This document shows, one piece after another, positions 7,923-64,000 of a DNA stretch of 64,000 bases. The stretch covers positions 105,895 to 169,894 of the forward strand of contig JASBVV010000046.1 of NCBI GenBank assembly GCA_029960885.1, written 5' to 3'. The notes beneath the pieces were generated by a model, which searched no databases, had not been told where the DNA came from, and saw only the letters and a list, made by a program, of their open reading frames with translations. The position numbers were made by a program, and so were the translations under genes. This stretch comes from Kyrpidia sp. GTDB taxonomy: Bacteria > Bacillota > Bacilli > Kyrpidiales > Kyrpidiaceae. Position 1 is the first letter of the stretch. Each line of letters opens with the position of its first letter.

Positions 7923-8029
7923 CTGACATCTCTCCTTGTACAAATGTCGTCTCTCAGGTTTGCCCCGAAAGACCGGAGGATATGTGTGATCTCCCTGGAG
8001 AACCTACAATGCCGATGGAAAAACTTAAT

Positions 8030-46605: not shown

Positions 46606-46798
46606 GAGGATCAGGCGTTCATTTCATACGCCTGTCACCTTTGCCGGTGCCATGCGCAGTCGTTCTACATTACTTCAAAAGAATTCCACGCATTCGCGAA
46701 AAGTCCTGCCGGCTTGAACATCATTCTTGGCGGAACCGAGCGCCTCTCTCGTGCATATGGATATCCCGAGCCATCTTTTGCCCGGAGGGGGAATTCCC

Positions 46799-47710
46799 GT
46801 GATCCCCGACGTCAGTGTGATCCTGCCCGCCCGAAACGAGCAGGACCACATCGAACCGACGATACGCTCCATATGGGCCGCCAAAAACCGCCTGTCCTTC
46901 GAACTGATCGTTATCGACGACGGCTCCGCCGACGGCACTCCGGAAATTGTGGACCGCCTGGCCCGGGAGGCGACGGAACATGGGGCGGACGCGGGCGGCA
47001 CGCCCACGCTCACGGTGCTGCACACCGGCGGTCTCGGAGCGGCCGGGGCTCGCAACGCCGGAGCCGGGAAGGCCAGGGGGCGAGTCTTGATCTTTTGCGA
47101 CGCCCACGTCTTCGTCGACGACGGCTGGCTGGATGAATTGGTTCGCTTGGTGGACAGCGGGGATTGGGATGCGGTGTGTCCCGGCATCGCCGCCCACGAT
47201 GAACCGGATCGGGCGGGATTCGGGCAATCCCTCACCGACACCGTCGAAATCCGCTGGCTGCCCAAACCCGATCGCCCGACGGCCGTCCCCATCGTTCCCG
47301 GCGCCTGTCTCGCCGTTCCCGCCGGCACCTTTCACCGGGTCGGCGGGTTTGACAGCGGTCTTCGAACGTGGGGTTTCGAAGACGTGGAATGGTCGGTACG
47401 CATGTGGCTCGCCGGCTATCGATTGGGTACCACGCCACATACGGTGGTGCGCCACGTGTTCCGGAAAATCCATCCGTACACGGTCCCATCCCATGAGTTC
47501 TACTACAATCTCACCCGAACCGCCCTCAGCCATTTCACGGGCCCCCGGCTGGCCCACCTTCTTCGCATGCTGTCAGGGCACCCGATGCGGTTCGATCTTC
47601 TCACCACCGCCCTGTGCGACGGTACGTTGGAGCGCCGCCAACGACTGTTCAGTACCCGGGTACAGGAAGACGCCTGGTTTGTCCACAGATTTGAGTTGCC
47701 GCTGGAATGA
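46799..47710 (+). CDS. GT2-family glycosyltransferase
   Basis: SVILPARNE, IDDGSADGT, ARNAG, FCDAH, WGFEDVE and VRHVFRK motifs. Confidence 0.9.
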   Translation: MIPDVSVILPARNEQDHIEPTIRSIWAAKNRLSFELIVIDDGSADGTPEIVDRLAREATEHGADAGGTPTLTVLHTGGLGAAGARNAGAGKARGRVLIFCDAHVFVDDGWLDELVRLVDSGDWDAVCPGIAAHDEPDRAGFGQSLTDTVEIRWLPKPDRPTAVPIVPGACLAVPAGTFHRVGGFDSGLRTWGFEDVEWSVRMWLAGYRLGTTPHTVVRHVFRKIHPYTVPSHEFYYNLTRTALSHFTGPRLAHLLRMLSGHPMRFDLLTTALCDGTLERRQRLFSTRVQEDAWFVHRFELPLE

Positions 47711-47873
47711 CCGCGCCGGCCCGCCGGAGTCGCCCAAATGCATCCCGGCGGCACCCCGGGCAATACCTCGGTCGGTGGCCGGCCGAACCCCTATGTCGCC
47801 CGACGCCGATTCCCGGAGCCCCCTCCGGGGGGCGCGCACAAGTTTCCCGCGCCCCCCGAAAACCGCGGACCGC

Positions 47874-48686
47874 TCAAACGGTCGGCGGCAGTGTCGGCAG
47901 GGGAGGCAGAGTCGGCGTGGGCGTCGGTGTCGGTGTGGGGGTCGGGCCCACGGCGGGAGCCGGATTGAGCACCAGTTGACGCTGCAGAACCTGAATCGTC
48001 AAAAGCACCATCATCTGTTCCCGGAACGTCCGGAACGTGCGTTCCTCAAGCGGCGGATCCCCGTCCTCCCCGAACCGGCGAGGCACATCGGCCTGCAGAA
48101 CGGCGGCGCTCACCAATTCACAGTACGGTTTGACATCATAATTGACGACGGTGAAGGAATCGTACTCCCGAAGCGGCCGGCCAAACCGTCCCACCAACTG
48201 ATACTCCTCGTACACGTCGGGGGTCGGCTCCACCGGCGGCGTCAAGAAGGTGACCGCCGTCACACTTTCAAAAGGCACATCGACGATGGTGTGGCGAACA
48301 TCCCCGCTGATGCTCCTGCGCGTCACCCGGGAAGCGGTCCCATACTGGATGTCTTCCCTGACGTATCCCCGGAGGAACAGTCGATTGGTCGGCAGGAGCA
48401 GATCGCACCGTTCCAGAAACACCGTTTTGTCAATGCGATGAATGTCCGAGGCCGGATCGGGCAGCCGAATCAGGGCGTCCAAATCGATCTGGACCGTAAA
48501 CTGAGCCAACAGGACGGGGGTCTTGATGGTGACCGGACCCACGGTGGGAACCGGAGTGACCGGGGTACTCGGCACTTCCGGAGGCGTTTTCGCCTCCACC
48601 ACCTCAGCTTCGCGGCACTCCGAATGGATGCGGAGGACATCGACATCCGAAGTCCGTTGGCTGAGTCGGCTTCGCGTTCTGCTCAT
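47874..48686 (-). CDS. CsxC-like spore coat/exosporium protein with Pro-Thr-rich ends
   Basis: Core PVLLAQFTVQID...TNRLFLRGYVREDIQY...KPYCELV resembles the CsxC family (recalled, not searched); C-terminal (PT)6 tail. Confidence 0.65.
   Translation of the reverse strand: MSRTRSRLSQRTSDVDVLRIHSECREAEVVEAKTPPEVPSTPVTPVPTVGPVTIKTPVLLAQFTVQIDLDALIRLPDPASDIHRIDKTVFLERCDLLLPTNRLFLRGYVREDIQYGTASRVTRRSISGDVRHTIVDVPFESVTAVTFLTPPVEPTPDVYEEYQLVGRFGRPLREYDSFTVVNYDVKPYCELVSAAVLQADVPRRFGEDGDPPLEERTFRTFREQMMVLLTIQVLQRQLVLNPAPAVGPTPTPTPTPTPTLPPLPTLPPTV
47910..47945 (-). repeat. (Pro-Thr)6 coding repeat
   Basis: Translation GPTPTPTPTPTPTLPPLPTLPPTV. Confidence 0.85.
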
Positions 48687-48876
48687 CTCCGTCTCCTCTC
48701 CCTTCTTCAGAATTGGGTTTCACCTCAATGGTATGGCCGTCCTGCGCCAAACGCACCGGCCCGTGTCCGAGGCCGCCGCCCTCATTCCCCGTTTTCAGCG
48801 GACGTCCACACGGCATTCTCCCGTTCACACATACACTGGGGCAAAGGCACCTCAATCATCCGGAGGTGATGCTCCC

Positions 48877-49923
48877 GTGAATATGTGCGTGGTCGGTGCC
48901 GGCCACATCGGGCAACACGTGCTGACCCACCTGCACCGAACCCGGCCGGCCGACTCCGTCACCGCGGTGGACATCGATCCCAAAAAAGTGACCGCCCTGC
49001 GAGAGCGGGGTTTTTCTGCAGACACGACCTGCCCGGAGGGCATTGATGTCGACGTCTGGATCATCTGTGTCTCCACAGGGCCGAACTTAGCCTGGTTATT
49101 CCAGGCACTCGACCGCCTTTCGCCAAAACCCGGCTCGCTGGTGAGCATTGAATCCACCCTTCCCGTGGGGACCACACGCGCGGCCGCGGCACGATTTCGC
49201 TCCCGCGGATACGCACCGGGAACGGGTTTTCACCTGATTCATGTGCCCCATCGGGTCCTGTTCGGCGTCGATGAGGATCCCGAAGCCTCCACCAGGATCA
49301 TTGCCGGCCTGACCGACGCTTGCCTGCGGGCGGGAATCGATTTTTACAGCGGCTGCGGAATCACCCTTCACCCGGTGAGCTGCCCGGAACTCGCGGAACT
49401 CGCCAAACTCGTGGAGAATTCCGCACGGTACCTTGAAATCGCCTTTGCCGAGGCGCTGAAACAAGCGTGCGACGAGCACGGACTCGATTTTGATCAACTC
49501 CGCCAAGCGGTGAACACCAAGAGCAATGTGCATCTGGCCGACGTGGATTACGGAATCGGCGGAGAATGCCTGCCCAAAGACCTGGATTTTCTGCAGGACT
49601 GGCTCCGCAGCCCCCTGCTCGGTGCCGCCGAAAAAACCGATCGGCGATACCGGCGGCATCTCGTCGATATCGCCTCCACCGCCAAGACCGCGCTATTGGT
49701 CGGCCTCACGTACAAACCCGGCGTTCCGGTTGTGCAGGGGAGCCGTGCCATCGAACTCGGCCGCCAACTGAAGTCCAGGGGCCTGAAGGTCTATGCCCGG
49801 GACCCGCTCCTGAAGGACGATCAGGTCGCGGAGCTGGGATTTACTCCCTATCGGGGAGCTGCGGATATCGACGTGATATATTGGCGCGGCAAATGGGAAA
49901 CGAAAAGGAGGCTTGCGCCGTGA
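48877..49923 (+). CDS. UDP-glucose/GDP-mannose dehydrogenase family protein (short, divergent)
   Basis: GAGHIG, IESTLPVGTT, AKLVENS, IGGECLPKD and GLTYKP motifs; GGAGG RBS with GTG start. Confidence 0.85.
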   Translation: MNMCVVGAGHIGQHVLTHLHRTRPADSVTAVDIDPKKVTALRERGFSADTTCPEGIDVDVWIICVSTGPNLAWLFQALDRLSPKPGSLVSIESTLPVGTTRAAAARFRSRGYAPGTGFHLIHVPHRVLFGVDEDPEASTRIIAGLTDACLRAGIDFYSGCGITLHPVSCPELAELAKLVENSARYLEIAFAEALKQACDEHGLDFDQLRQAVNTKSNVHLADVDYGIGGECLPKDLDFLQDWLRSPLLGAAEKTDRRYRRHLVDIASTAKTALLVGLTYKPGVPVVQGSRAIELGRQLKSRGLKVYARDPLLKDDQVAELGFTPYRGAADIDVIYWRGKWETKRRLAP

Positions 49924-50909
49924 ACTGGTCCGGAGTACAGGTTTTTGTCACCGGCGCCGCGGGATTTATCGGCAGCCATGTCACCGAATCGCTGGTTCGC
50001 CGGGGGGCTCGGGTGCGGCCGTTCATCCGCTACAACTCCACGCGCCACCTCGGATGGCTGGCCCACTTGGCCCCCGATGTGCAGAAGGAACTGGATGTGG
50101 TCGCGGGCGATCTGTGCGACTCCGAAGCGGTGTATCGGGCGATGCGCGGAACGGACATGGTTTTTCACCTCGGTGCGCTCATTTCGATTCCGTATTCGTA
50201 CGCCCATCCCCGGGAAGTGGTGGAAACGAACGTCATCGGCACCCTGAATGTGTTGACGGCGGCCAGAAACGCGGGGGTCCGCCGGGTGATCCACACGTCG
50301 ACCAGCGAGGTGTACGGAACCGCCCAGTACGTGCCCATCGACGAACACCATCCCCTCCAGGGACAATCGCCCTATTCCGCCAGCAAAATCGCCGCAGACA
50401 AGCTGGCGGAGAGCTTTTTTTGTTCCTATGAGCTCCCGGTGGTCACTGTGCGCCCCTTTAACGCGTATGGCCCCCGTCAATCCCTGCGCGCCGTCATCCC
50501 CACCATACTTGTTCAAGCGCTGACCCGGGACCGGATTCAGTTGGGCGACCTTTCGACCAAACGGGATTTCACCTTTGTGGAGGACACCGCCGCCGGTTTT
50601 GTCCGCGCCGCGGAAGTGGACCACGCCGTCGGGGAAGTCTTCAATATCGGCAGCGGCCGCGAGATCCGCATCGGCGACCTCGTCCGGGAGGTGCTCTCGA
50701 TCACCGGGCGCCCGCTGCCCGTGGAACAGGACACAAGACGGCTGCGCCCGACCCGGAGCGAAGTGCGGCGGCTCCGGGCGGATGCCTCCAAGGCCGAACG
50801 GATTCTCGGATGGCGGCCCCAGGTGGAGCTCCGGGAGGGGCTGGCGCGCACCCTGGCATGGATCGAAGCGCACCTGGATCGCTTTCCCGGCGACGACTAC
50901 GCGGTGTGA
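49920..50909 (+). CDS. NAD-dependent nucleotide-sugar 4,6-dehydratase (LegB-like extended SDR)
   Basis: TGAAGFIGSH, HLGALISIPYSY, TSTSEVYG, YSASK and RPFNAYGPRQS motifs. Confidence 0.88.
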   Translation: MNWSGVQVFVTGAAGFIGSHVTESLVRRGARVRPFIRYNSTRHLGWLAHLAPDVQKELDVVAGDLCDSEAVYRAMRGTDMVFHLGALISIPYSYAHPREVVETNVIGTLNVLTAARNAGVRRVIHTSTSEVYGTAQYVPIDEHHPLQGQSPYSASKIAADKLAESFFCSYELPVVTVRPFNAYGPRQSLRAVIPTILVQALTRDRIQLGDLSTKRDFTFVEDTAAGFVRAAEVDHAVGEVFNIGSGREIRIGDLVREVLSITGRPLPVEQDTRRLRPTRSEVRRLRADASKAERILGWRPQVELREGLARTLAWIEAHLDRFPGDDYAV

Positions 50910-50916
50910 GGAGGGG

Positions 50917-51636
50917 ATGCCCGTGAAGGCGGTGATTATGGCGGGCGGCCGGGGTCTTCGCCTGCGACCTCTCACCGACGTCCTGCCCAAACCCCTTCTA
51001 CCTCTGGACGGAGTCCCGATGGTGGAAATCCTGATCCGGCAGTTGGCGGCCGAGGGATTTGACGACATCGTGCTGACCGTCGGGTACCGGGCGGATCTTT
51101 TGCGGACCTATCTCGGCAACGGCGAACGGTTCGGAGCCCGCATCGGCTACATCCATGAAATCGAACCCCAGGGGACGGCGGGAAGCCTGCGCCAATTGAC
51201 CTGTCGCGAGCCTCTGTTGGTGGTCAACGGGGACATTCTGACCACCGCCCGGTTTCGGGAGATCGTCGCGAAGCATCGAGAATACGGGGCGGAACTCACC
51301 CTCGTCTCCTACCGGTCGGACATCGCCGTGGATTTTGGCGTGCTGCGGACAAAAGGCCGGCGGGTGGTCCGGGTGGATGAAAAGCCGACGCTCCCGGCCT
51401 TGGTCAACACCGGCATCTACGTGCTTTCCCCGTCCGCAGCGGCGTGCATTTCGAACGGTCCTTGCGATATGACCGACGTGATCGGCCGGCTGCTGGCCGA
51501 GCAGCGGCAGGTCTGCCACTTCCCTTTTGACGGGGTGTGGATCGACATCGGACGGATGGACGATTTTTACCGGGCACAAAGGCTGTTTGCGGCCGATCGA
51601 GGCCGCTTTCTGCCACCTCCGGAAAAAGGAGCGTGA
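50917..51636 (+). CDS. Sugar-1-phosphate nucleotidyltransferase
   Basis: MAGGRGLRLRPLT...PKPL, GTAGSL, NGD, EKP and WIDIG motifs. Confidence 0.9.
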   Translation: MPVKAVIMAGGRGLRLRPLTDVLPKPLLPLDGVPMVEILIRQLAAEGFDDIVLTVGYRADLLRTYLGNGERFGARIGYIHEIEPQGTAGSLRQLTCREPLLVVNGDILTTARFREIVAKHREYGAELTLVSYRSDIAVDFGVLRTKGRRVVRVDEKPTLPALVNTGIYVLSPSAAACISNGPCDMTDVIGRLLAEQRQVCHFPFDGVWIDIGRMDDFYRAQRLFAADRGRFLPPPEKGA

Positions 51637-52556
51637 ACGAAGTGAGCACCGTGTTGGTCACCGGAAGCCGGGGGACCCTCGGCAATCGGTTGGTTTCCGC
51701 TCTTCGGCAGGCGGGGCACGACGTGTGGCAGTGCGATCTGCTGCACACCGGAGAACCGCAGTATTTTCGCGCCGATGTCGGAAACCACCGGCAGTTGGAG
51801 AGGGTGTTCGAACCGGACTACGACTATGTGTACCATTTGGCGGCGGAATTCGGCCGGATCAACGGCGAGGAATATTACGACACCTTGTGGCAGACCAACG
51901 TGGTGGGAACCCGAAACATTCTGGAGTTTCAACGAAAGAAGGGATTTAAACTTATCTTCGCCAGCTCGTCGGAGATCTACGGACAAACCCGGGAGCTTCT
52001 CCTTGACGAAGACCTCCCCCTGCGGCGGCCGGTCATTCCGCACAACGACTACGCCATGACCAAATGGGTCAATGAAGTGCAAATCATGAACTTTGAGCGG
52101 CGGTACGGACTCCCGGTGATGCGCCTGCGGCTGTTCAACGCCTATGGCCCGGGCGAATATTACCATCCGTACCGCAGCGTGGTCTGCCTGTTTCTCTACC
52201 GCGCCCTGCACCGGCTTCCCTACACCGTGTACGAAGGATATCACCGGGTTTTCATGTACGTCGACGATCTCATCCTCACCTTGGTCCGGTGCGTCGATCG
52301 GTTTCGGCCCGGAGAAGTGTACAACATCGGGGGGCGGGAGTACCGCAGCGTTCACGAACTGAGCGACAAAATCCTGGCGTTGACCGGGGCTCCGCAGAGT
52401 CTGGTCACCTATCTGCCCGAGGACGTGCACAACACGGTGAACAAGCGTCCGGACATCGCCAAAGCCGTCCGGGATCTCGGCCACGACCCGAAGGTCACCC
52501 TGGACGAGGGCCTGCCCCTCACCCTGGCGTGGATGCGCGAGGTGTACCGGGTGTGA
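51633..52556 (+). CDS. NAD-dependent epimerase/dehydratase
   Basis: TGSRGTLG, HLAAE, SSSEIYG, YAMTK and FNAYGPGE motifs. Confidence 0.88.
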   Translation: MNEVSTVLVTGSRGTLGNRLVSALRQAGHDVWQCDLLHTGEPQYFRADVGNHRQLERVFEPDYDYVYHLAAEFGRINGEEYYDTLWQTNVVGTRNILEFQRKKGFKLIFASSSEIYGQTRELLLDEDLPLRRPVIPHNDYAMTKWVNEVQIMNFERRYGLPVMRLRLFNAYGPGEYYHPYRSVVCLFLYRALHRLPYTVYEGYHRVFMYVDDLILTLVRCVDRFRPGEVYNIGGREYRSVHELSDKILALTGAPQSLVTYLPEDVHNTVNKRPDIAKAVRDLGHDPKVTLDEGLPLTLAWMREVYRV

Positions 52557-53287
52557 CCGAGAGCGGAAACCCTGCGATCAGTGTGGTGGTTCCGGTCCAC
52601 AACCACGAGCGGTACATCTATGAATGTGTGGACAGCGTTCTTGCCCAGGACGGGATCCCTTCCCTGGAGGTGGTGGTGGTCGATGACGGGTCCACCGACC
52701 GAACCCCCAGGATCCTTCGGGCATTCGGCCGACGCATCCGGGTAATCCGGCAGTCCCGGGCGGGGACGGCGGCCGCCTTAAACCGGGGTTTTCAGACCGC
52801 CAGGGCGCCCTATGTATGCTGGCTGTCCTCGGACGACCGGTTTGAACCGGGGAAACTCTCCGCCCAATGGCAGTACATGACCGCCCATCCCCATCTCGCC
52901 ATGTGTTATACGTCATTTCACGTGATCGATCGACATGGTGTGCGGTCGTATACGGTGCAGTCACCCTACGATCCGGACCGGAATCGATTGTATACCCTGC
53001 TTTTGGGAGGGTGTTTCATCAACGGTTCCACGGTCATGATGCGAAAAGACGCCTTTCTTGAAATTGGAGGATTGGACCCCGCGCTGGTGCAGGGGCACGA
53101 CTACGACCTGTGGCTGCGTCTCCTGGAACAGTACGACATCGGTTTTCTTCCCGAACCCCTTCTCTCCTATCGGTGGCACGGGGCCAACATGAGCGCTGAT
53201 CCCGTCGCAAACCAGTATTACAGCGGACTGGTCATACAACGGGCCGCGCGGCGAAGACAAAGCCGGGCAGGAGGTGATCGATCGTGA
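52553..53287 (+). CDS. GT2-family glycosyltransferase
   Basis: SVVVPVHN, VDDGSTDRT, WLSSDD and DYDLWLR motifs. Confidence 0.9.
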   Translation: MTESGNPAISVVVPVHNHERYIYECVDSVLAQDGIPSLEVVVVDDGSTDRTPRILRAFGRRIRVIRQSRAGTAAALNRGFQTARAPYVCWLSSDDRFEPGKLSAQWQYMTAHPHLAMCYTSFHVIDRHGVRSYTVQSPYDPDRNRLYTLLLGGCFINGSTVMMRKDAFLEIGGLDPALVQGHDYDLWLRLLEQYDIGFLPEPLLSYRWHGANMSADPVANQYYSGLVIQRAARRRQSRAGGDRS

Positions 53288-54279
53288 ACATCGTCATTCC
53301 GGTGATGAGTCTACACCGGGGCGGAGGATGCCGGGTGATCACGGAGATGGCGAACGGCCTGCAGGCTTACGGGCATCAGGTGTCCATCGTGATGGTGGAA
53401 CATGGCCGGCTCGAGTATGACGTCCGTGTGCCGGTGATCCGGGTGCCGGACCTGACCCCGGAATCCCTTCCCCAAGCCGACGTGTTCATCCCCAATTTCT
53501 ACACCACGGTGATGCCCGCCTATCAGTCGCGCAAGGGCCGGGTGGTACGGCTGTCCAACGGATATGAGCCACTTTGGGTTCCCGACAAACAGGAGGCGGA
53601 ACAGACGTATCGGCTGCCGGTGCCCATTCTGGCGATTTCCCGGATCCTGCAGCGGCAAATCCGTCAGGCGACGGGCCGCCCCAGTTATCTGGTGCAGCCC
53701 GGAGTCGACTCTTCGGTCTTTCGTCGATATCCCGAGGTGCCCCGACGGCGGAACCGGATTTTCTTTATTTATCGGGCGGAGAGCCATGGATATTTTTACA
53801 AGGGATCCGCGGATTTCTTCCGGGCCATGGAGCGGGTGCACCAGGTCGTCCCTGACGTGGAATTGGTCATGGTCTCCACCGACCGGGTGGATATTCAAAC
53901 GGATCTGCCGTTTCAACTCGCGAAAGCGGACACCGACCGGGAGATGGCTCTGTTGTACGCCTCCAGCGATCTCTTCGTCTCCGCCTCTTGGTTTGAAGCG
54001 CTGTGTCTCCCCGCCCTGGAGGCGATGGCCTGCGGCACGCCGGTGGTGACCACCGACTCCGGAGGAGTTCGGGATTTTGCGGTGCCCGGCGAGAACTGCC
54101 TGATGGTTCCGCCCCGCTCTCCAGAACTCATGGCCCGGGCCATCCTCCGGGTTCTCGGCAATGATATTCTCCGCGAGCGTCTCCGGAGCGCAGGGCTTCG
54201 AACGGCCGCCCGCTGGACGTGGCAGCGATTCTACCGCCAGGTGGACGCCGCCTTGGCCAGTGCCCTGGCCGCTTCCTGA
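53284..54279 (+). CDS. GT4-family glycosyltransferase
   Basis: GGGCRV, YKG and EALCLPALEAMACG (EX7E) motifs. Confidence 0.9.
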   Translation: MNIVIPVMSLHRGGGCRVITEMANGLQAYGHQVSIVMVEHGRLEYDVRVPVIRVPDLTPESLPQADVFIPNFYTTVMPAYQSRKGRVVRLSNGYEPLWVPDKQEAEQTYRLPVPILAISRILQRQIRQATGRPSYLVQPGVDSSVFRRYPEVPRRRNRIFFIYRAESHGYFYKGSADFFRAMERVHQVVPDVELVMVSTDRVDIQTDLPFQLAKADTDREMALLYASSDLFVSASWFEALCLPALEAMACGTPVVTTDSGGVRDFAVPGENCLMVPPRSPELMARAILRVLGNDILRERLRSAGLRTAARWTWQRFYRQVDAALASALAAS

Positions 54280-55232
54280 TACAGCCGGCTCCAGTGAGCA
54301 TTGCGGACGGTCTCGAGGCCCCCGGCGATCAGGTGTTGGCGCAGGGTGTAATCGCTCAGCACCCGGACGATCAGCCTGGACAGCCGCTCGGGATCGCCGG
54401 GCGGCGCCAGGAGGGCGTTGTGGCCGGAGACGGCGATTTCGTCGACCCCGTCCCCGTAAACGCAGACCACCGGGGTGCCGCAGGCCATGGCTTCCAAGAC
54501 AGAGATCGGCGTTCGTTCCCCGCCGGCCGGATGCACGAACACGTCGGAGGTATTGTACAGGCCGGCCAACTGTTCATCGGTCAGCCTCCCGTGCAGCACC
54601 CACCCGTCTCCGGGCGGGCGGACGCCGCCCCGACATACGCCGTGGCATTGCAGCCCGGGCAGAATCCGCCTCGCCAGGTCCAGGGCGGCATACGCGGTCG
54701 CCAGTCCCCGAATCGGAAGGCCGGGGCCTTCCGGAGCAATGAACATGAGGACCTTTTGTGCGGGCCTCCGCTGCTGGAACTCAGGGCGGGGACGAAACAC
54801 CGACGGATCGATCCCCGGATGCAGCACCGAGGACATTTTGCCAAAATGGGCTTGAATGAGGGTTTTCAGCGATTCCGACACCGTCCAGACTACGGCGGCA
54901 TCCTGTAGAGCCCTCCTCGCCCGCTCCACATCGGCGGCGTAGGCCGGGTCGAATCGCCCGGCCAAGCGGATGACGCGGCCGCGCCCTGAAGAGAAGGCCG
55001 CATCAAAGGATTCGGCATCGGCCGCCACCGCCGCATCGGCGGGGGGCAGAGAGTCCGGCGACCCTCCCGCCATTCGGACCAGATGGCATCGAATCGGCCA
55101 ATCCACCGGCACATCCCCCGGCACCGCCACGGTGACCCGGTGGCCTGCGCTCTGAAGACCGTGAGCCAGCTCCACCACCGTCCGGGAATGGCCCCCGTGG
55201 GCCAGATCCCGAGCAAAGATCACAACCCTCAC
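54231..55232 (-). CDS. GT4-family glycosyltransferase (divergent paralogue)
   Basis: HGGHSR, HPGID and ERTPISVLEAMACG (EX7E) motifs; GTG start inferred from the RBS. Confidence 0.85.
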   Translation of the reverse strand: MRVVIFARDLAHGGHSRTVVELAHGLQSAGHRVTVAVPGDVPVDWPIRCHLVRMAGGSPDSLPPADAAVAADAESFDAAFSSGRGRVIRLAGRFDPAYAADVERARRALQDAAVVWTVSESLKTLIQAHFGKMSSVLHPGIDPSVFRPRPEFQQRRPAQKVLMFIAPEGPGLPIRGLATAYAALDLARRILPGLQCHGVCRGGVRPPGDGWVLHGRLTDEQLAGLYNTSDVFVHPAGGERTPISVLEAMACGTPVVCVYGDGVDEIAVSGHNALLAPPGDPERLSRLIVRVLSDYTLRQHLIAGGLETVRNAHWSRLYQEAARALAKAASTWR

Positions 55233-55447
55233 CGAGATCCCCCCCATCGGTTCTCGATCAACGTCCCCCCATCCAACCCCGGGACCGGCCGTCCTCCGCT
55301 CGGGCGACCCGCCACGGCGGAAGACGTTTCGTCGCTGTATGTGTACGCCGGATTCCGGGCTCCTGTGCAGGTTTCGGGCCCGGGAAGCTTGGCCAGACTG
55401 AACGGAGAGAACCATTCGGGGCCATGGGACGGAAGGTGAAAGATGAC

Positions 55448-56035
55448 ATGTCTTGGATCTGGTGGATCGTGGGCACGGTGGCCGCACCGGTGGTCCTGAC
55501 CGGGCTGGGGGTGGGCGGATTTGTCCTCTGGCGGTGGTGGCGCGGCTATATGTCCAGCTACAAATTCAAGTTTCACGACCCGAATGTCCCCTTGGACAAA
55601 AACGAAATCCGTCACAATTTCGAATTCATGATCGGTCTGGAAGTCGGGCAGGTAAAAATGTTTCGGTACCAGGCGGCCAAGCTTCGCCGGGCCAAGGCCG
55701 GCGATTACCTGGTCGCTTTCGTGGATGCGGCCGCCCGGATTGAGCACGTTCACGTGAGGCGCCTGCGGTCGCTCTATCGTGAACTGTTCGGTCGCGCGGC
55801 GCCCAGCCGGCTCGGTCATGCAGCGGGGTGGGTGACCATTCTCATGAGTGCGATGTTGCCCGAACGATGGATGGCCAAATGGGATGCCTGGTCAGAACAG
55901 TTGGCCATCGCGCATTACGAGCGCGTCGTCGCCCAGGCCCGGGAACCGGCGGTGCGCCGGATGTTTCTCGAACACGCCGCCGATGAACGGTCCCACCTGG
56001 AATTATTCAAAAAATGGGAGCTGCACGCCCAATGA
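55448..56035 (+). CDS. Membrane-anchored ferritin-like di-iron protein
   Basis: N-terminal TM; ligand pattern LEVGQ...IEHVH...SEQLAIAHY...DERSH. Confidence 0.7.
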   Translation: MSWIWWIVGTVAAPVVLTGLGVGGFVLWRWWRGYMSSYKFKFHDPNVPLDKNEIRHNFEFMIGLEVGQVKMFRYQAAKLRRAKAGDYLVAFVDAAARIEHVHVRRLRSLYRELFGRAAPSRLGHAAGWVTILMSAMLPERWMAKWDAWSEQLAIAHYERVVAQAREPAVRRMFLEHAADERSHLELFKKWELHAQ

Positions 56036-57507
56036 ACGGGTGGCCGGCTTTCCTGACCGCATCCTTGGCCGGCAGCGCCCTCAGCCTCCTGCTCGCCACC
56101 CTGATCCTGTGGCGGGGGGGCAGGCTTTTGCTCAACTTCCTCGCCGACCGCACGATGAACATCCTTTTAACCGATCCTTATCGCCATAATCTGTGGGAAT
56201 TCATCAGTGCCTCCCGCCGCTCCGGTCCCCAACTCCTCATTGAAAATTCCATGCGGGCCGCCACCGGCGAGGTGATCAAGCGGCCCATGGGATCTCCGAA
56301 ACCCTCGCCCCAGTTCGAGGCCATCTCCTTCACCCCCGCCCAGGTCAACCGGGCGGCGGCTCCGGGCATCACCGACCTCTCGGTGGTCATCGGTCCGAAA
56401 GCCGGACGTCCCTTGACCCTTCCCATCCCGATTGTGATCGGCGGCATGGGCTACGGTGTGGGCATCACCCGGGAAGTGTGGAGCGCACTTTTGGGCGGAG
56501 CGACGGCCATGGGCACGGTGGTGAACACCGGGGAAGGCACGGTGTCCCTCGAGGATGTCCGGGCGGCGGGAGGAAGATTTATCCTCCAATGGGGCCGGAC
56601 GCATTGGGCGAAACAACCGGACCTGTTACTGGCCTGCTCGGGAGTGGAAATCCATTTCGGGCAGGGGTCGTCGGCGGGCATGGGGATTCACATCCCTCCG
56701 GAAGAGTTGAAAGACGCCCGCACCCACATGAAACTGGGACCCCGGGAGTGGGGGCGCATCGGGGAGCGGTTTCCCGGCGTTCGTGGCATCGCCGATCTCG
56801 GGCGCATGGTCTCCCAACTTCGGGAAGCATCCGGCGGCGCCCCTATCGGCGGAAAAATTTCTCCCGGCGACGATATCGAAGCTTGTCTGGATACCCTGCT
56901 TCAGTGCGGCGCGGATTTCATCACCATCGACGGGGCCCAAGCCGGCACCAAGGGGAGCGAACCCATCATTGAGGACGATTTCGGCCTGCCGACCTTTTTC
57001 GCCCTGTGCCGGGCCCGGCACTATTTTGAGACCCGTCGGGTGAACGGCGTCAGTCTCATCGTTTCCGGCGGCCTGGCCACCCCGGGGCATTTTTTGAAAG
57101 CCATCGCCCTGGGGGCCACGGCCGTGGCCATTGGCACACCGGCGTTGTACGCCGTCACCCACGGCCAACTGCAAAGAGCGCTGCCGTTCGAACCGCCGAC
57201 CGAACTGGTGCTCATGACGGGCCGTCGAACCGGGGCCTTCGACCCTGTTGAGGGAGCCCGAGCCCTGGCGATGTACCTCAAATCCTGCGTGGATGAGATG
57301 GCAATGGGAATCCGGGCGATGGGCAAAGCCTCGCTCAAGGAGGTTTCCTCCGCCGACCTGTTCGCCCTGGACCCCGAAGTGGCCCGGGTGGCGGGCATTC
57401 GCTATGCCGGGGATGTCCGGGCGGATCTGTACCGGAGAAACCGATCCCGGGGACGGCGGCCCGGGACGGGTCCGCAACGGGGGGCGCGTTGGAGGGAGCG
57501 TTCATGA
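56032..57507 (+). CDS. FMN-binding glutamate-synthase-family protein (stand-alone, membrane-anchored)
   Basis: GGMGYG, NTGEG, EIHFGQG, ITIDGAQAGT, DDFGLP, SGGL and KAIALGA motifs; N-terminal hydrophobic helix. Confidence 0.85.
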   Translation: MNGWPAFLTASLAGSALSLLLATLILWRGGRLLLNFLADRTMNILLTDPYRHNLWEFISASRRSGPQLLIENSMRAATGEVIKRPMGSPKPSPQFEAISFTPAQVNRAAAPGITDLSVVIGPKAGRPLTLPIPIVIGGMGYGVGITREVWSALLGGATAMGTVVNTGEGTVSLEDVRAAGGRFILQWGRTHWAKQPDLLLACSGVEIHFGQGSSAGMGIHIPPEELKDARTHMKLGPREWGRIGERFPGVRGIADLGRMVSQLREASGGAPIGGKISPGDDIEACLDTLLQCGADFITIDGAQAGTKGSEPIIEDDFGLPTFFALCRARHYFETRRVNGVSLIVSGGLATPGHFLKAIALGATAVAIGTPALYAVTHGQLQRALPFEPPTELVLMTGRRTGAFDPVEGARALAMYLKSCVDEMAMGIRAMGKASLKEVSSADLFALDPEVARVAGIRYAGDVRADLYRRNRSRGRRPGTGPQRGARWRERS

Positions 57508-58022
57508 AAAAGAATCTGTGGCGAAACACCGTAAGACTCCGAAAGATGAGCACCCCGCAACCCGGCGGACCGCCCCTGATCACCCTGGATCAGGTGGCCA
57601 AGATCCGGCGCCGGCTGCCCCTGACCCCGGAGGAAACCCTGTACGCGCTGGCCCTGTCCGCCGATCTGCTGGAGCGCCTCATTCGGCGGCTCGACCGGCC
57701 GTTGAGCCGGGCTCGCAACAACGAGACCCGGCTCGGCTGGAACCGGATGAAGCAGCGCCTGGAAGCCCACCGGCGGCGGCTTCGCCGGCAGATGCGCCGC
57801 ATGGGCGAACCGAAGGTTCAGGTCCGCCCAACCCAAGCGCAGGTGTCCGAAACGTCTTGGAGCCATCTGTTCGCGTTGTATGAACGGCTGATCGACGGCA
57901 CCAAGGATGTCCGCCTCCGGGCGGTGCTGCTAGAAATCTGGGGCGAGACGGCGATCGGACACGGGTGGCTGGCCTCCTGGGCGGTGGACGTCGGGGATCT
58001 TGATCCGGATCTGGTTCGCTAA
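57504..58022 (+). CDS. Hypothetical basic helical protein (possible degenerate ferritin-like fold)
   Basis: ATGA overlap with the upstream gene and GGAGG RBS; LYERLIDGTKDVRLRAVLLEIWGETAIGH recalls ferritin-like helices. Confidence 0.6.
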   Translation: MKKNLWRNTVRLRKMSTPQPGGPPLITLDQVAKIRRRLPLTPEETLYALALSADLLERLIRRLDRPLSRARNNETRLGWNRMKQRLEAHRRRLRRQMRRMGEPKVQVRPTQAQVSETSWSHLFALYERLIDGTKDVRLRAVLLEIWGETAIGHGWLASWAVDVGDLDPDLVR

Positions 58023-58043
58023 AAGAGTTCATCCACACTTCCC

Positions 58044-58352
58044 TTATTGACCATTGAACACAATGATGACTGTGGTGGGGCGTCCGGGGATCGCCGAGCG
58101 AAACACAATCCGGGCATAACGAAGAAACAATCGCGGCACCAGAGCCACGGCGGCCTGGGGGGAGACGTCGGTGAACAGGCTGTCTTCAAGAAACGTCCCC
58201 TGGTCCGGGCTCACCTGCAAGCCCACCGTGGCCGGGTTGGTGCCGGAGTTGATCACGACAAAGGTATAGATTTCCAGACCGGCCAACTCGATAAAATTTG
58301 ATCCCTGCAGGTTATCCGTGGTGGTGTAGGTCTCGATCGATTGCCGAAACAT
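58044..58352 (-). CDS. Stand-alone DUF6385-like beta-domain protein
   Basis: YTFVVINSGTNPATVGLQVSPD...LVPRLFLRYARI is visibly homologous to the C-terminus of the 58650 protein. Confidence 0.7.
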   Translation of the reverse strand: MFRQSIETYTTTDNLQGSNFIELAGLEIYTFVVINSGTNPATVGLQVSPDQGTFLEDSLFTDVSPQAAVALVPRLFLRYARIVFRSAIPGRPTTVIIVFNGQ

Positions 58353-58649
58353 GGCAGGACCTCGTTTTCTTGACGGGAATCTGCTTCCCACTGTATGCGT
58401 CAAGGCGTGTCGGTGACCGGGCACTGCGGAATGTCGCCGTTCGCCGGCGAACTCGATGACGACTTCCGGGTGACTGCCCCATCCGTCGACCGGGTCAGCC
58501 ACATATTTTCACGCCCTTGGATTCCTGTCCAAGCCGTCGTGAATGCGCATCCGTATCCTTTCTAACAGTGGCGGCGAGAAAAGCCGGCCCACCTTCAGAG
58601 CGGCAGCCGAGCAAAAGAGCCGGCCCACACTCAGAAAGGATGATCAGAC

Positions 58650-59300
58650 TTGCCGAACTTTGCTGTTTTCAATCCCAATCCCGACGACCTGCGAGCGCTC
58701 ATTTTCGGTCAGGACAACACCAGCACCAGCCGGATTCTGGCCACCGACAGTTCCGGTAACCTGACCACCATCGCCCTGGGTGGGACCATTTCCAGCGTCC
58801 TGGGGACGACAGTCACCGCCGGCACCTTGACCAATCTGCTCGACGGCACCATCTCCGGCGTCCTGGGAGCCACCGTCACGGCGGGCACCCTGACCAATCT
58901 GCTGAACGGTACCATCTCCAGCGTCCTCGGTGCGACCGTCACCGCCGGTACCCTGAGCAGCGTCACCTCGGTTTCCCAGAAAAGTTTTGTCGAAGTGTCG
59001 TACCCGGGCACCCAAACCGCGGACACCTTCACGCCCCTCCCTCAGGTGACCACGGCCAACCTCGGCACCTATTCGTTTTTTGTGTATAACGCCGGCCCCA
59101 ACTCCGCCAACCTTCACGTGGAAATCAGCGCGGACAGCTCCCACTGGTATGTGGACCAACTGAGCACCGGTCTGGCCGCAGGGTCTGTGGATGTGCTGGT
59201 TCCAAGCCGTTTCCTGAAATACACCCGATTGTCCTACGCTTCGGCCACTGCCGGAGCACCGACCACCATCGACGTCTATTTCAACGCCCAGGGGACCTGA
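58650..59300 (+). CDS. Thr/Ser-rich repeat protein with a C-terminal DUF6385-like domain (candidate spore glycoprotein)
   Basis: TTG start after AAAGGA; MPNFAVFN N-terminus; 21-aa repeats; C-terminal YSFFVYNAGPNSANLHVEISAD...LVPSRFLKYTRLSY. Confidence 0.75.
   Translation: MPNFAVFNPNPDDLRALIFGQDNTSTSRILATDSSGNLTTIALGGTISSVLGTTVTAGTLTNLLDGTISGVLGATVTAGTLTNLLNGTISSVLGATVTAGTLSSVTSVSQKSFVEVSYPGTQTADTFTPLPQVTTANLGTYSFFVYNAGPNSANLHVEISADSSHWYVDQLSTGLAAGSVDVLVPSRFLKYTRLSYASATAGAPTTIDVYFNAQGT
58782..58955 (+). repeat. 63-bp (21-aa) tandem repeat, about 2.8 copies
   Basis: GTISSVLGTTVTAGTLTNLLD / GTISGVLGATVTAGTLTNLLN / GTISSVLGATVTAGTL. Confidence 0.92.
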
Positions 59301-59325
59301 TCCCCTGGGGCCCACACAAGGAGGG

Positions 59326-61380: not shown

Positions 61381-62767
61381 GGCGGCCAACCTCGAAGCCT
61401 GTCTCCGGAGCGCCCGGGAAGCCGTGGACGAAATGATCGTGGTGGACACCGGCTCGGATGACGGCACCGGGGACCTGGCCCGCCGGCTCGGCGCCACTGT
61501 CATCGACGAACCGTGGTGCGATGATTTCGCCCGGGCGCGCAACGCCGGGCTGGACCGGGCCCGGGGAGAATGGATTCTGGTGTTGGACGCTGACGAGATC
61601 TTGGAACACGGCGGTTCGGAACGGCTGAGAACCGTCGTGCGGAGTGAAGATGGAGAGGCGGTGTTGCTGCAAATCTGCCACGAGCCGGGTCCCGGACAGG
61701 GGATTGCCGTGATCAATCCGGTGGTGCGCCTGTTTCGCAATCGGCCGGAATACCGCTTTGAGGGCCGGATTCACGAACAGATCGCGCCGTCGATCTGCCG
61801 GGCCCGGCCCGATGCCGGCTTTGTCGTCAGCGACATCCGCATTCGCCATCTCGGCTATCATCCCGACGTCGTGACGACCCGGAACAAAATCGCCCGCAAC
61901 CTCCGGCTGTTGCAGCAGGAGCTCCGAGACAATCCCGAGCAGCCCTTTCACTGGTACAACCTGGGCGTCGAGTACGTGCGCGCGGGCGACCTCCCCAGGG
62001 CCCTCCCCTGCTTCCGCAAAGCCCGGCACGGAATGAGCCCGGAGGTGACGCCGTGGGCGCATCTGTTGTACAAAGTCGAAGCTCGGTGCCTGTACGCCGC
62101 CGGACGCCGGGACGAAGCCCTGGCCCTTTTCCGGGAAGGGCTGCGCCTGTTTTCCGGATACACCGATTTGTACTATTGGTATGGGTTGTTCCTCCTGGAT
62201 GCGGGCCGGTGGGAAGCCGGCACGCGACTTCTTCGAAAGGCGGTGGAGTTGGGCCCGGCTTCTCCGGCGTTCCATCGGGAGGAAGGGACCGGGACATACC
62301 TTCCCTGCTTCGCCCTGGGGATCGCCGCCGAGCGGCTGCGGGTGTTCGACGCCGCCCTGACCTGGTACGAAGCCGCCTTGGCGCACGAACCGAGGCTGTG
62401 GCCCGCCCTGGCCCGGATCGCCGCCATTCTCTATGTGACCGAAGGAAAGGCTGCGGTGGCCCGGTTCTTGGAAAGCCGGGTGGCCCCCGCCGATCCGGAA
62501 TCCGCCCGGACGCTGACCGTTCTTCTGCACCGGAGGGACGGCCGCCGGACGGCGCAGCTGCCGGGCCCGACGCCCTCGGCTGAAACGGCCTCGAAAGGGA
62601 AACTCTCCACAACTGCCGAAGCCGACCTGGCGGCCCCGCGCCTGGCCGACGCGGACGAACATCTCATGGGCCTGATGGGCACCGCACCCTTCGATCCGTT
62701 GATCACGGCGGTGCGCTTGGAGATATCCCGGCTGCGAATCGGGGAGGTGTGCCGACATGTCCTTTAA
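61337..62767 (+). CDS. GT2 + TPR glycosyltransferase
   Basis: ISLCMIVKNE, VDTGSDDGT, DDFARARN, LDADE, FEGRIHEQ and HLGY motifs, then TPRs. Confidence 0.92.
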   Translation: MNRPRISLCMIVKNEAANLEACLRSAREAVDEMIVVDTGSDDGTGDLARRLGATVIDEPWCDDFARARNAGLDRARGEWILVLDADEILEHGGSERLRTVVRSEDGEAVLLQICHEPGPGQGIAVINPVVRLFRNRPEYRFEGRIHEQIAPSICRARPDAGFVVSDIRIRHLGYHPDVVTTRNKIARNLRLLQQELRDNPEQPFHWYNLGVEYVRAGDLPRALPCFRKARHGMSPEVTPWAHLLYKVEARCLYAAGRRDEALALFREGLRLFSGYTDLYYWYGLFLLDAGRWEAGTRLLRKAVELGPASPAFHREEGTGTYLPCFALGIAAERLRVFDAALTWYEAALAHEPRLWPALARIAAILYVTEGKAAVARFLESRVAPADPESARTLTVLLHRRDGRRTAQLPGPTPSAETASKGKLSTTAEADLAAPRLADADEHLMGLMGTAPFDPLITAVRLEISRLRIGEVCRHVL

Positions 62768-64000
62768 CATTTCCCTGTGCATGGTGATCCGGGATGAAGA
62801 GCGCTTCCTGAGCCGTTGTCTGGCATCCGCCGCCCCATACGTATCGGAGATCGTCGTGGTGGATACCGGATCTGCGGATCGGAGCCGGGAGATCGCCGCC
62901 TCTTTCGGAGCCCGGATCCTGACCATCCCATGGGAGGACGATTTTTCCCAGGCGCGCAACGCCGGCCTGGAAGCGGCCCGGATGCCCTGGATCCTGGTCT
63001 TGGACGCGGACGAGGTGCTCGTTCCCCCGGATCCGCACCACCTGGAAACTCTCCTGGCCGACCCCGGGGTTCAGGGCTATTTTGTCCAGATCCGCCATCG
63101 GATCGGGGATGGGTCCTCAGGCGAGTATGTGGTCGACGCCGCCTGCCGGCTGTTTCGGAATGACCCGGCCATCCGGTTTCAGGGAACGATCCACGAAGAA
63201 GTGGTTTCCGCCATCCGCGCCCATCACGGGGACCTGGTCAAATTCTCCGAGCTGGTCCTCTGGCACGACGGGTACCTGGATGCGGTGATCGCCGAAAAAA
63301 AGAAAGGCGAACGGAACAAGGCCATTTTGCGAAAGGCGTTGGAATCGCGCCCGGATGACCCGGTGCTGCTCTACGCCTGGGGAACGGAACATTTCCAACA
63401 GGGCGCCTATCCCGAGGCCTTGGCCGCTTTCGAGCGGGCACTGACCCTGGCGCCGGTTTTCTCGGGGTACACCTCGGACCTGGCGCTGAAAACCGCGTAC
63501 TGTCTGCGGGAACTCGGGCGGCGGCAGGAGGCGGCCGGGCTGCTCCAGCAGGCAGCCACGTTGTACCCCGACTTTGTCGATCTTCTGGAATGGCGGGCGG
63601 TCCTGCACCTGGACGACGACCGGGCGGACCGGGCTCTGCCCCTCCTCCGGCAATGCTTGCAGATGGGGCCCTGCGATGGCCGGTACAGTTCCGCCTCCGG
63701 GGCGGGCACGTACCGAAGTCACTATCTGGCCGGCGTCTGCTGCGAGCGGCTGTGGCTGTGGGAGGAGGCTGTGGAACATTACCGGGCCGCTCTGCGGATC
63801 CGACCCGGTTACGCACCCGCCTGGCTCCGCCTGGCCGAATTGGCCCTGCTGCTCGATCGCCGGGAGATGTGGAGCGAGCTTGTCCCTCTGACGGCCGGTT
63901 CGGAAAAGCCGCCCCGGTGGTTGAACACCTCTGTCCGGAGGCGCTGGCCGAAGGAGTGGCAGATCGCATGGGACCGGCGGCTCGGCCTCTCCCGACCCGG
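62757..64000 (+). CDS. GT2 + TPR glycosyltransferase, 3' end outside the window
   Basis: Read manually: MSFNISLCMVIRDEE, VDTGSADRS, WEDDFSQARN, LDADE, FQGTIHE and HDGY motifs; frame appears open to the window end. Confidence 0.88.
   Translation, partial: MSFNISLCMVIRDEERFLSRCLASAAPYVSEIVVVDTGSADRSREIAASFGARILTIPWEDDFSQARNAGLEAARMPWILVLDADEVLVPPDPHHLETLLADPGVQGYFVQIRHRIGDGSSGEYVVDAACRLFRNDPAIRFQGTIHEEVVSAIRAHHGDLVKFSELVLWHDGYLDAVIAEKKKGERNKAILRKALESRPDDPVLLYAWGTEHFQQGAYPEALAAFERALTLAPVFSGYTSDLALKTAYCLRELGRRQEAAGLLQQAATLYPDFVDLLEWRAVLHLDDDRADRALPLLRQCLQMGPCDGRYSSASGAGTYRSHYLAGVCCERLWLWEEAVEHYRAALRIRPGYAPAWLRLAELALLLDRREMWSELVPLTAGSEKPPRWLNTSVRRRWPKEWQIAWDRRLGLSRP

Follow-up and report, generated by a model that had tools for sequence, protein, structure and literature searches.

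A candidate two-layer spore-envelope glycoprotein island in Kyrpidia that links DUF6385 repeat proteins to three GT2-TPR glycosyltransferases

Only a few model species have supplied the known spore glycoprotein systems, namely, BclA of the Bacillus cereus group, BclA3 and the glycosyltransferase (GT) SgtA of Clostridioides difficile, and the crust of Bacillus subtilis. BclA, which forms the exosporium nap of B. anthracis and B. cereus, consists of a conserved N terminus, a variable Thr-rich stalk, and a C-terminal trimerizing beta jelly-roll, and genes for sugar synthesis and glycosyl transfer lie nearby. Two other enzymes, GmaR and SunS, transfer sugars straight onto a protein or peptide; the target of GmaR is the flagellin of Listeria, and SunS S-glycosylates Cys in a small bacteriocin. 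Here we analyze a glycosylation island at the 3′ end of a 64,000-nt stretch of Kyrpidia sp. DNA (GCA_029960885.1, contig JASBVV010000046.1, positions 105,895 to 169,894; referred to below as the window), in which a Ser/Thr-rich repeat protein of the DUF6385 family is encoded directly upstream of three enzymes that join a GT2 catalytic domain to tetratricopeptide repeats (TPRs) and that we call GT2-TPR 1 to 3. We propose, with a probability that we put at roughly 0.55, that this is a two-layer spore-envelope glycoprotein island that carries out mother-cell glycosylation of a collagen-free, BclA-like trimeric fiber of the spore surface.

The closest described systems differ in acceptor and in enzyme. 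SgtA (CD3350) of C. difficile comprises a 358-aa GT-A domain and four TPRs and adds beta-O-GlcNAc to Thr of BclA3 repeats in vitro; BclA3 is a repeat-bearing spore-surface protein lacking a signal peptide, and its gene lies next to sgtA (PMC7157674). The BclA plan, with its rhamnose and GT genes, is summarized in PMC12357932, which also treats the endospore appendages (ENAs), small jelly-roll or beta-sandwich subunits that have no signal peptide and are assembled on spores. The subunits of S- and L-ENAs belong to DUF3992, and the trimers of F-ENA (DUF4183) stack via an N-terminal hook of the MP type, with probable O-glycans on F-ENA-3a (PMC12357932). The B. subtilis crust is reported to be a collagen-free spore surface that depends on sps, cge, yfn, and ytc genes, CgeA, soluble GTs of the mother cell, and dedicated nucleotide-sugar genes, including a LegB-type step (PMC7439481, PMC13577073). 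Finally, CsxC of Clostridium sporogenes, a cysteine-rich, disulfide cross-linked protein, forms parasporal crystalline layers between the coat and the exosporium (bioRxiv 10.64898/2026.09.03.749163).

Our proposal is supported by the constancy of gene order around the DUF6385 repeat gene. Relatives of the repeat protein were found in 181 species of a species-level genome collection, with representatives in Kyrpidia, Alicyclobacillaceae, Effusibacillus, Paenibacillus, Cohnella, Bacillus methanolicus, Peribacillus, and Neobacillus; the K. tusciae protein is 69% identical to that of the window (accession for the K. tusciae DUF6385 pair, WP_013075204). We surveyed 84 loci, namely, the best 80 of the 181 species' loci and 4 others, fetched with their flanks. 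At every one of them (84/84), three GT2-TPR genes come immediately after the repeat gene, and paralogues 1, 2, and 3 of the window match best at the first, second, and third positions, respectively. Because the paralogue order is constant across loci, we conclude that the triplication is old and that each copy has been kept. Downstream and on the opposite strand, the fetched flanks contain a GT4 gene in 59, a GT2 gene in 74, and a gene for a TPR protein in 50 of the 84 loci, and the last of these genes, which encodes a protein with an alpha/beta domain and TPRs, closes the module in at least 50; gene calls for K. tusciae, Paenibacillus albus, and B. methanolicus agree with this layout. Of 75 loci, 51 have a second DUF6385 gene just ahead of the repeat gene, 47 of them in the same orientation and 4 divergently. 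The core of the module is a short DUF6385 protein, the DUF6385 repeat protein, three GT2-TPR enzymes, a GT4, a GT2, and the TPR protein. When 20 DUF6385 loci from different families across the phylum were surveyed (GC content, 34 to 62%), 13 had one to three adjacent GT2-TPR genes, often together with a stand-alone GT2. A preliminary description of this DNA had recommended hidden Markov model searches for DUF6385, CsxC, GT2, and TPR combined with neighborhood co-occurrence; the DUF6385/GT2-TPR association proved to be conserved across ~180 species and is the robust functional link, the link to CsxC being local.

The GT2-TPR enzymes resemble enzymes that modify proteins or peptides. The catalytic domain of GT2-TPR 2 (residues 3 to 212) matched Listeria GmaR (1.7e-30) and SunS (1.1e-19) among PDB sequences, and TPR_1, TPR_2, TPR_14, and TPR_16 matches were located C-terminally on the GT2-TPR chains, which contain no transmembrane (TM)-like segment. 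DTGS.D and DADE are invariant in 12 sequences (three paralogues from each of four genomes), so that all three enzymes look catalytically active, and the DxD motif is intact. Their membership in the protein- and peptide-glycosylating GmaR/SunS group is supported by these sequence matches. Direct glycosylation of proteins, which had been claimed for these enzymes, is a prediction from GmaR/SunS homology and from the SgtA-type build of a GT-A domain plus TPRs, and a soluble, direct protein-glycosylation system tied to the DUF6385 repeat protein has good comparative support. The TPR protein that ends the module (~430 aa, minus strand, positions 3197 to 4483 of the stretch fetched beyond the window) was modeled confidently as a small alpha/beta domain and a TPR superhelix (predicted local distance difference test [pLDDT] score, 86); a Foldseek search for its relatives returned only generic TPR proteins and none at an E value of ≤0.001, and neither the protein nor its N-terminal alpha/beta domain could be matched to a family. 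A glycocin (SunA/SunS-type) cluster, in which a ribosomally synthesized and posttranslationally modified peptide would be the acceptor, was considered and rejected: the candidate acceptors have 0 Cys and are 102 to 216 aa long, and a transporter is absent from the locus.

The two DUF6385 proteins of the window, which scored 104.7 and 82.7 bits against a cutoff of 26.8, are the only two copies in the host genome, a metagenome-assembled genome (MAG) of 2.04 Mb and 61.6% GC that is 86% complete and to which all host-genome negatives given here refer. An alignment of 24 homologues of the repeat protein revealed a conserved 45-aa N terminus (MPNFxxFNxNPDxLRTLIFG...), a variable number of repeats with the unit GTITSVLGATITAGTLTNLLN, and a conserved C-terminal DUF6385 domain. 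In the window protein, the 21-aa repeat is present in 2.7 copies of a 63-nt unit (determined with TRF), and the repeat region is 37% Ser plus Thr. More generally, among 258 representative clusters, the DUF6385 domain was nearly always at the extreme C terminus, behind an N-terminal part of very variable length. No collagen was found in the host genome, in which no open reading frame (ORF) has a run of ≥8 GXX triplets and none matches Pfam Collagen. Only the C-terminal domain was modeled confidently in the monomer, with a jelly-roll fold. A three-copy model of the repeat protein scored 0.68, compared to 0.00 for the best control, with contact agreement between runs of at least 71% and a partner pLDDT of at least 67; in calibration, for which two copies rather than three were used, 20 of 30 solved one-chain pairs attained this score, as did 1 of 23 single chains. 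The confident contacts in this model involve the jelly-roll and N-terminal strands 17 to 42, and the modeling supports self-association of the repeat protein. Since neither DUF6385 protein contains any Cys (0 in both), ENA-like disulfide chaining is out. The MPNF start of the repeat protein is strongly conserved; the F-ENA hook also begins with MP, which may be an analogy only.

CATA-N3-TA is the −10 element of the sigma-K/sigma-E type in the B. subtilis consensus. A CATACAGT box had been noted earlier at this locus, and when this lead was tested, CATACANTG turned out to have just two matches in the 64 kb, against 0.5 expected, once before the short DUF6385 gene and once before the operon for nucleotide-sugar synthesis, at the distances given in Table 1. 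Because these two transcription units carry the only such boxes in the window, the pattern suggests that they are coregulated. The CATACACTG box of the sugar operon, with its ACAC element, and the CATACCATT box of the CsxC gene are conserved in all three Kyrpidiaceae genomes that were compared (the window, K. tusciae, and Bu37, an Alicyclobacillaceae MAG), and the box position of the short DUF6385 gene reads CATAGCATA in K. tusciae and CATAAGGTG in Bu37. For calibration, we inspected host sporulation genes within 120 nt of their starts and found AC-N17-CATAAGATG at dpaA, CATAGAATG at spoIIID, and CATAGAATT at cotE; upstream of spoIVA, TCATATT is followed by CATAGATA. The looser pattern CATANNNTR has only 11 matches in the window, both strands counted, and therefore an ~1% chance of occurring in any 150-nt upstream region. 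Ahead of the first DUF6385 gene, 52 of 75 related loci show GCCGTnnC, an unconserved spacer of 17 (rarely 18) nt, and CATAnnnT(A/G). A conserved (A/T)AGCA block follows the −10 box. Given that the boxes are kept while the spacer sequence varies, we regard the arrangement as a two-box promoter signature. Its −35 region overlaps a palindrome, ACGGCAnnTGCCGT (core, GGCAnnTGCC), ~220 to 260 nt upstream of the first DUF6385 gene, which is likely a binding site of a putative operon-specific regulator. Together, the promoter boxes favor mother-cell expression. The preliminary description had postulated mother-cell O-glycosylation; the −10 boxes of the mother-cell type, the sporulation genes of the host, and the lack of any membrane or export component speak for the first part of that claim, but the timing of expression, the identity of the glycosylated protein, the O-linkage, the sugars, and the position on the spore are features that we infer.

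A second set of genes surrounds the core. Only in the window, K. tusciae, and the Bu37 MAG is the core joined by the CsxC gene, the four sugar genes, GT2b, GT4a, GT4b, and a redox trio; there, the whole 21-kb gene order is kept at a protein identity of 54 to 90%. Because the same order recurs in K. tusciae and in an Alicyclobacillaceae MAG, the clustering is not due to chance. This much agrees with the view, taken in the preliminary description, of one locus, but the island is better seen as a conserved core with lineage-specific additions than as a single unit. The four-gene pathway probably makes a nucleoside diphosphate (NDP)-6-deoxy-hexose (or N-acetylhexosamine) and a uronic acid, with the short-chain dehydrogenase/reductase (SDR) epimerase/reductase probably acting on a 4-keto-6-deoxy intermediate. 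The CsxC-like protein has 270 aa, 3 Cys, and a 31-residue C-terminal tail that is 68% Pro plus Thr, and Pro/Thr tails of variable length are found in CsxC orthologues. Its tail ends in PTLPPLPTLPP (window positions 47874 to 47970), which may resemble the GPTLPPIPP-type exosporium-targeting motif of BclA N termini. In a second genome of the same genus (C1:2001937-2002770), the CsxC-like gene is matched in two overlapping pieces, which suggests a frameshift or a split gene.

In the mechanism that we propose, the repeat-bearing DUF6385 protein would form a homo-oligomer, probably a trimer, via its C-terminal jelly-roll, and the Thr/Ser-rich 21-aa repeats would make up a stalk of variable length. 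The GT2-TPR enzymes would grip this protein by their TPR arms and place the first sugars directly on Ser/Thr, the adjoining GT4 and GT2 would extend the glycans, and the domain-only DUF6385 paralogue and the alpha/beta-TPR protein may serve as anchor, cap, or assembly partners. The Kyrpidiaceae layer adds the four-gene sugar pathway, a further three GTs, and a putative lattice protein of the CsxC family that bears a Pro/Thr tail. All steps would take place in the mother-cell cytoplasm late in sporulation, under the control of sigma-E or sigma-K; if so, no signal peptide, flippase, or lipid carrier would be needed, because the work would be done in that compartment. We further offer, as a tentative extension of this proposal, the idea that a hitherto undescribed class of glycosylated, collagen-free trimeric fiber is built from DUF6385 repeat proteins. 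Such a fiber would either correspond functionally to the BclA nap or be another kind of endospore appendage; in it, the domain-only paralogue would nucleate or cap, the MPNF N terminus would dock to the spore or to the next trimer, and each GT2-TPR enzyme would have its own sugar or its own site on the 21-aa repeat.

Several observations weigh against the proposal of a glycosylated DUF6385 fiber. The repeat region was modeled poorly (pLDDT, <50), and the structural matches of the jelly-roll are generic: XepA (Z score, 11.4), PirA (10.9), Ena1B (7a02; 10.9 but with a root mean square deviation [rmsd] of 4.8), YomS (10.4), and the BclA C-terminal domain (1wck; 8.1, rmsd of 3.1 over 100 residues); the further ENA matches (Ena2A, 9.8; Ena1C, 8.8; Ena3A, 8.7), like Ena1B, stand among many other jelly-rolls. 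GT2-TPR genes were absent within 9 kb at 7 of the 20 phylum-wide DUF6385 loci. Moreover, tumor necrosis factor (TNF)-like lectins and carbohydrate-binding modules are also matched, at Z scores of ~8 to 9, and nine GTs exceed the needs of a short O-glycan. Formally, then, the GTs could act on the spore surface with DUF6385 not as the acceptor but as a lectin-like or scaffold binder of glycans, the acceptor being a crust-like polysaccharide or other coat proteins, for which the Pro/Thr tail of CsxC is a plausible candidate. We consider this unlikely, since the GT2-TPR catalytic domains are closest to direct modifiers of proteins and peptides, lipid-carrier enzymes are absent from the locus, and the only length-variable and most Ser/Thr-rich feature is the repeat stalk, encoded immediately 5′ of the GT2-TPR trio in all 84 loci. 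In a search of 20 relatives, genomes with both CsxC and DUF6385 were confined to the window's own family, and as a substrate, the CsxC-like protein is much less supported than the DUF6385 repeat protein. The preliminary description had both structural proteins decorated; the conserved association with GT2-TPR genes speaks for the DUF6385 repeat protein as a putative acceptor and much less for CsxC, which is linked only within the window's own family. The distributions of CsxC and DUF6385 being disjoint among the relatives searched, and the sugar genes, redox trio, and CsxC gene being missing from the module flanks outside the family, it could also be argued that the 21 kb holds independent neighbors brought together by a lineage-specific accident: CsxC with GT2a, a sugar-nucleotide/GT2/GT4 operon for some other glycan, and the DUF6385/GT2-TPR module. 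Retention of the whole order not only in the window and K. tusciae but also in Bu37, which is more distant, and the placement of the only two CATACANTG boxes at the sugar operon and the short DUF6385 gene, which suggests coregulation, make such an accident quite improbable.

The link to sporulation has to be weighed in the same way. In Kyrpidiaceae, no clean CATA box precedes the repeat gene, and the aligned position reads CCGTATCCT; between positions 58500 and 58560, a conserved CACAT(A)TTTTC block and CCGTATCCT (CATATGTTG in Bu37) fit no named promoter consensus. Searched for in K. tusciae and two Paenibacillus genomes, the full motif GCCGTnnC-N17-CATAnnnTR gave 0 to 2 matches per genome (1 to 2 in Paenibacillus), which is the level of reversed controls; we therefore dropped it as a general sigma-K promoter, and its −35 part is probably operon specific because elsewhere the motif stays at the control level. 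Among 401 genomes sampled across the phylum, 44 encode DUF6385, and 41 of these encode SpoIVA, the other 3 being only 75 to 90% complete. Because 81% of the sampled genomes have SpoIVA regardless, this co-occurrence ties DUF6385 to sporulation only weakly. In addition, K. tusciae, the second same-genus genome, and Bu37 each encode flagellin in one or two genes, GmaR is the best PDB sequence match of the enzymes, and the sigma assignment is read from a 9-nt box. These points would fit a module that is not specific to sporulation and that acts in vegetative or stationary-phase cells on flagellin encoded elsewhere, as GmaR does in Listeria, or on an intracellular or nonclassically released protein. 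We give this explanation little credence. The flagellin gene of K. tusciae is 1.85 Mb from the locus, and no Flagellin_N match was found in the host MAG; since relatives do encode flagellin, it is this distance, and not absence, that weakens the alternative. An adjacent flagellin, BclA, or Wzx-Wzy set, which the preliminary description had named as another possible explanation for the GTs, is not present at the locus. The partner kept in 84 loci is DUF6385 and not flagellin, the −10 boxes match those of host dpaA and spoIIID, and DUF6385 was not found in any sampled SpoIVA-lacking genome that is >90% complete. The literature is silent as well: searches by accession and locus tag found no mention of the Kyrpidia or B. 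methanolicus proteins, which lends the proposal no support; searches on DUF6385 returned no treatment of the family, with the term seen only in an unrelated context; and for Kyrpidia spore glycosyltransferases, only a taxonomy review was found. The earlier statement that no such system has been characterized in this lineage is in line with these searches.

The island spans ~21 kb, encodes nine GTs, and extends 3.5 kb beyond the window edge (Table 1). The contig continues for 6.4 kb past the window, to window-equivalent position 70466, and there contains the end of the GT2-TPR 3 gene, minus-strand genes for the GT4, the GT2, and the alpha/beta-TPR protein, and then a HisKA_3 histidine kinase gene that is unrelated to the island. 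Pfam and NCBIfam scans bore out the inventory given in the preliminary description, which had listed seven GTs in view (two GT2, two GT4, and three tandem GT2-TPR), a four-gene nucleotide-sugar pathway, a CsxC-like protein with a Pro/Thr tail, and a DUF6385-like protein with 21-aa repeats, had placed no signal peptide on either structural protein, and had expected the locus to run past the window edge. The scans also revealed the domain-only DUF6385 gene, which had been noted separately, and the rubrerythrin/FMN/~172-aa trio inside the locus. Hydrophobic segments of the TM or signal type are absent from all nine GTs and all three structural proteins. All island genes encode at most two hydrophobic segments, and there is no multipass membrane protein; the rubrerythrin-like and flavin mononucleotide (FMN) proteins, each with one N-terminal TM-like anchor, are the only anchored proteins of the island. 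Families of initiating phosphoglycosyltransferases, flippases, and polymerases (Wzx/Wzy) had no Pfam match among the genes of the locus, to which this search was confined. Flagellin and collagen genes were likewise lacking in the locus, including the part beyond the window, and inspection up to the contig end, as had been advised, disclosed no collagen-like or flagellin target.

Table 1. Features of the glycosylation island and candidate promoter boxes (positions refer to the window)
Feature	Position	Strand	Basis or remark
GT2a glycosyltransferase	46727..47710, likely start ATG 46757	+	Pfam Glycos_transf_2 7.7e-27; adjoins CsxC gene also in K. tusciae and Bu37 MAG
CsxC-family protein, Pro/Thr-rich C-terminal tail, 3 Cys, without signal peptide	47874..48686	-	NCBIfam NF045794, 170 bits vs cutoff 135
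CATACCATT box, candidate mother-cell -10, near-match (TT end, not TG)	48727..48735	-	40 nt upstream of CsxC ATG; invariant block in three Kyrpidiaceae genomes
CATACACTG box, candidate sigma-K/E -10	48830..48838	+	38 nt upstream of sugar operon; ACAC 18 nt further upstream
NDP-sugar dehydrogenase (UDP-Glc/ManNAc dehydrogenase family)	48877..49923	+	Pfam UDPG_MGDP_dh N, central, and C domains; TIGR03026 2.2e-46
LegB-like NDP-hexose 4,6-dehydratase	~49920..50909	+	TIGR04180 430 bits, just below cutoff 475; GDP_Man_Dehyd 9.6e-74
Sugar-1-phosphate nucleotidyltransferase	~50917..51636	+	Pfam NTP_transferase 2.4e-40
SDR epimerase/reductase	~51642..52556	+	Pfam Epimerase 6.4e-42
GT2b glycosyltransferase	~52544..53287	+	Glycos_transf_2 9.8e-34
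GT4a glycosyltransferase	53284..54279	+	Glyco_trans_1_4, Glycos_transf_1
GT4b glycosyltransferase	54231..55232	-	Glycos_transf_1 1.6e-20; 333 aa, same length as in Kyrpidia
Three overlapping genes: rubrerythrin-like, Glu_synthase-type FMN protein, ~172-aa protein	55448..58022	+	Pfam
Domain-only DUF6385 protein, 102 aa	58044..58352	-	PF19912 2e-23; ATG 58352, GAGG ribosome-binding site
CATACAGTG box, candidate sigma-K/E -10	58389..58397	-	36 nt upstream of short DUF6385 gene
DUF6385 repeat protein (proposed glycosylation substrate, fiber subunit)	58650..59300	+	PF19912 2.7e-30
GT2-TPR 1, 684 aa	59326..61380	+	Pfam GT2 + TPR; SunS family 8.7e-24 (NCBIfam)
GT2-TPR 2, 476 aa	61337..62767	+	Pfam GT2 + TPR
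GT2-TPR 3, 580 aa	62757..64000, on to window-equivalent 64499	+	Pfam GT2 + TPR

Shadow ORFs are numerous at 62% GC, and GC content at third codon positions failed to tell real from shadow genes; because this measure was uninformative, genes were called from Pfam/NCBIfam matches together with synteny with Kyrpidia. The trio of rubrerythrin-like, FMN, and ~172-aa proteins is kept in place in K. tusciae and Bu37 and does not adjoin the module in Paenibacillus. In P. albus, the module is closely followed by a Glu_synthase-family gene (~20878 of the fetched stretch), possibly by coincidence; a search for the FMN protein beside the module in other genera gave no match at an E value of ≤1e-20 in five genomes, a result that is uninformative given the strict threshold and the lack of a positive-control genome. 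Compared with the window and K. tusciae, the Bu37 MAG has an extra ~4.4 kb (positions 3700 to 8130 of its fetched stretch) that separates the rubrerythrin gene from GT4b. Upstream (5′) of the island, the window contains lepA, spoIIP, gpr, comEC, leuS, aroE, yqeH, yqeG, and a gene for a class B penicillin-binding protein. The host genome also encodes SpoIVA, CotE, SpoIIID, and DpaA and therefore has a sporulation toolkit. Phage origin was rejected, as PHROGs searches were null for both DUF6385 proteins, the CsxC-like protein, and the TPR protein and phage genes are absent nearby.

Adhesion, dispersal, hydrophobicity, and recognition by the immune system or by phages are all determined by the spore surface. 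If our reading is true, the module would add to the known systems a different acceptor family and a fixed set of three glycosylating enzymes. Its ~180 host species belong to Paenibacillaceae, Kyrpidiaceae, Alicyclobacillaceae, and some Bacillaceae, and other spore-forming classes contain relatives. The hosts include cultured organisms (Kyrpidia tusciae DSM 2912, many Paenibacillus species, and Bacillus methanolicus PB1), and the predicted acceptor is short and repeat bearing, which suits peptide assays. Since the spores of Paenibacillus and Alicyclobacillus spoil food, their surface chemistry is of practical interest.

GmaR and SunS are the best sequence matches of the catalytic domain, and the DxD motif is kept; in contrast to those systems, there is no flagellin nearby, and the candidate acceptor has no Cys, leader peptide, or transporter. 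To our knowledge, a GT2-TPR triplet is not part of the B. subtilis crust system. The resemblance to that crust, as reported, lies in a collagen-free surface, soluble GTs, and a nucleotide-sugar pathway with a LegB-type step. The protein families differ, a search of the B. subtilis control genome yielded no DUF6385, and legionaminic acid would require aminotransferase and synthase steps that the pathway of the window does not have. Glycosylation of a collagen-free spore surface is already known as a concept (PMC7439481, PMC13577073). As for CsxC of C. sporogenes, the 270-aa protein of the window passes the CsxC_fam cutoff, but with only 3 Cys and a Pro/Thr tail, it is not cysteine rich. The ENAs resemble the DUF6385 repeat protein in being small proteins without a signal peptide; its jelly-roll matches Ena1B at a Z score of 10.9, and its conserved MPNF N terminus may be analogous to the F-ENA hook. 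Unlike the ENAs, it has no DUF3992 or DUF4183 match (DUF6385 is the only Pfam match at an E value of ≤0.01), has no Cys, superimposes on Ena1B with a high rmsd, and is a predicted fiber subunit. F-ENA was rejected as a member of the same family, being DUF4183 and not DUF6385.

The two closest parallels are SgtA/BclA3 and BclA. With SgtA/BclA3, the locus has in common a GT-A-plus-TPR enzyme encoded beside a Thr-rich repeat protein that lacks a signal peptide, a likeness of domain build. Here, however, 21-aa repeats and a DUF6385 jelly-roll take the place of collagen GXX triplets in the acceptor, three fixed GT2-TPR paralogues with a GT4 and a GT2 take the place of one enzyme, and the lineage is that of Bacilli (Kyrpidiaceae and Paenibacillaceae). 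From BclA, the DUF6385 repeat protein differs in having no collagen triplets and a C-terminal domain of a different Pfam family, but the three-part plan, with a putatively trimerizing jelly-roll, is the same, and here too, GT and sugar genes adjoin it.

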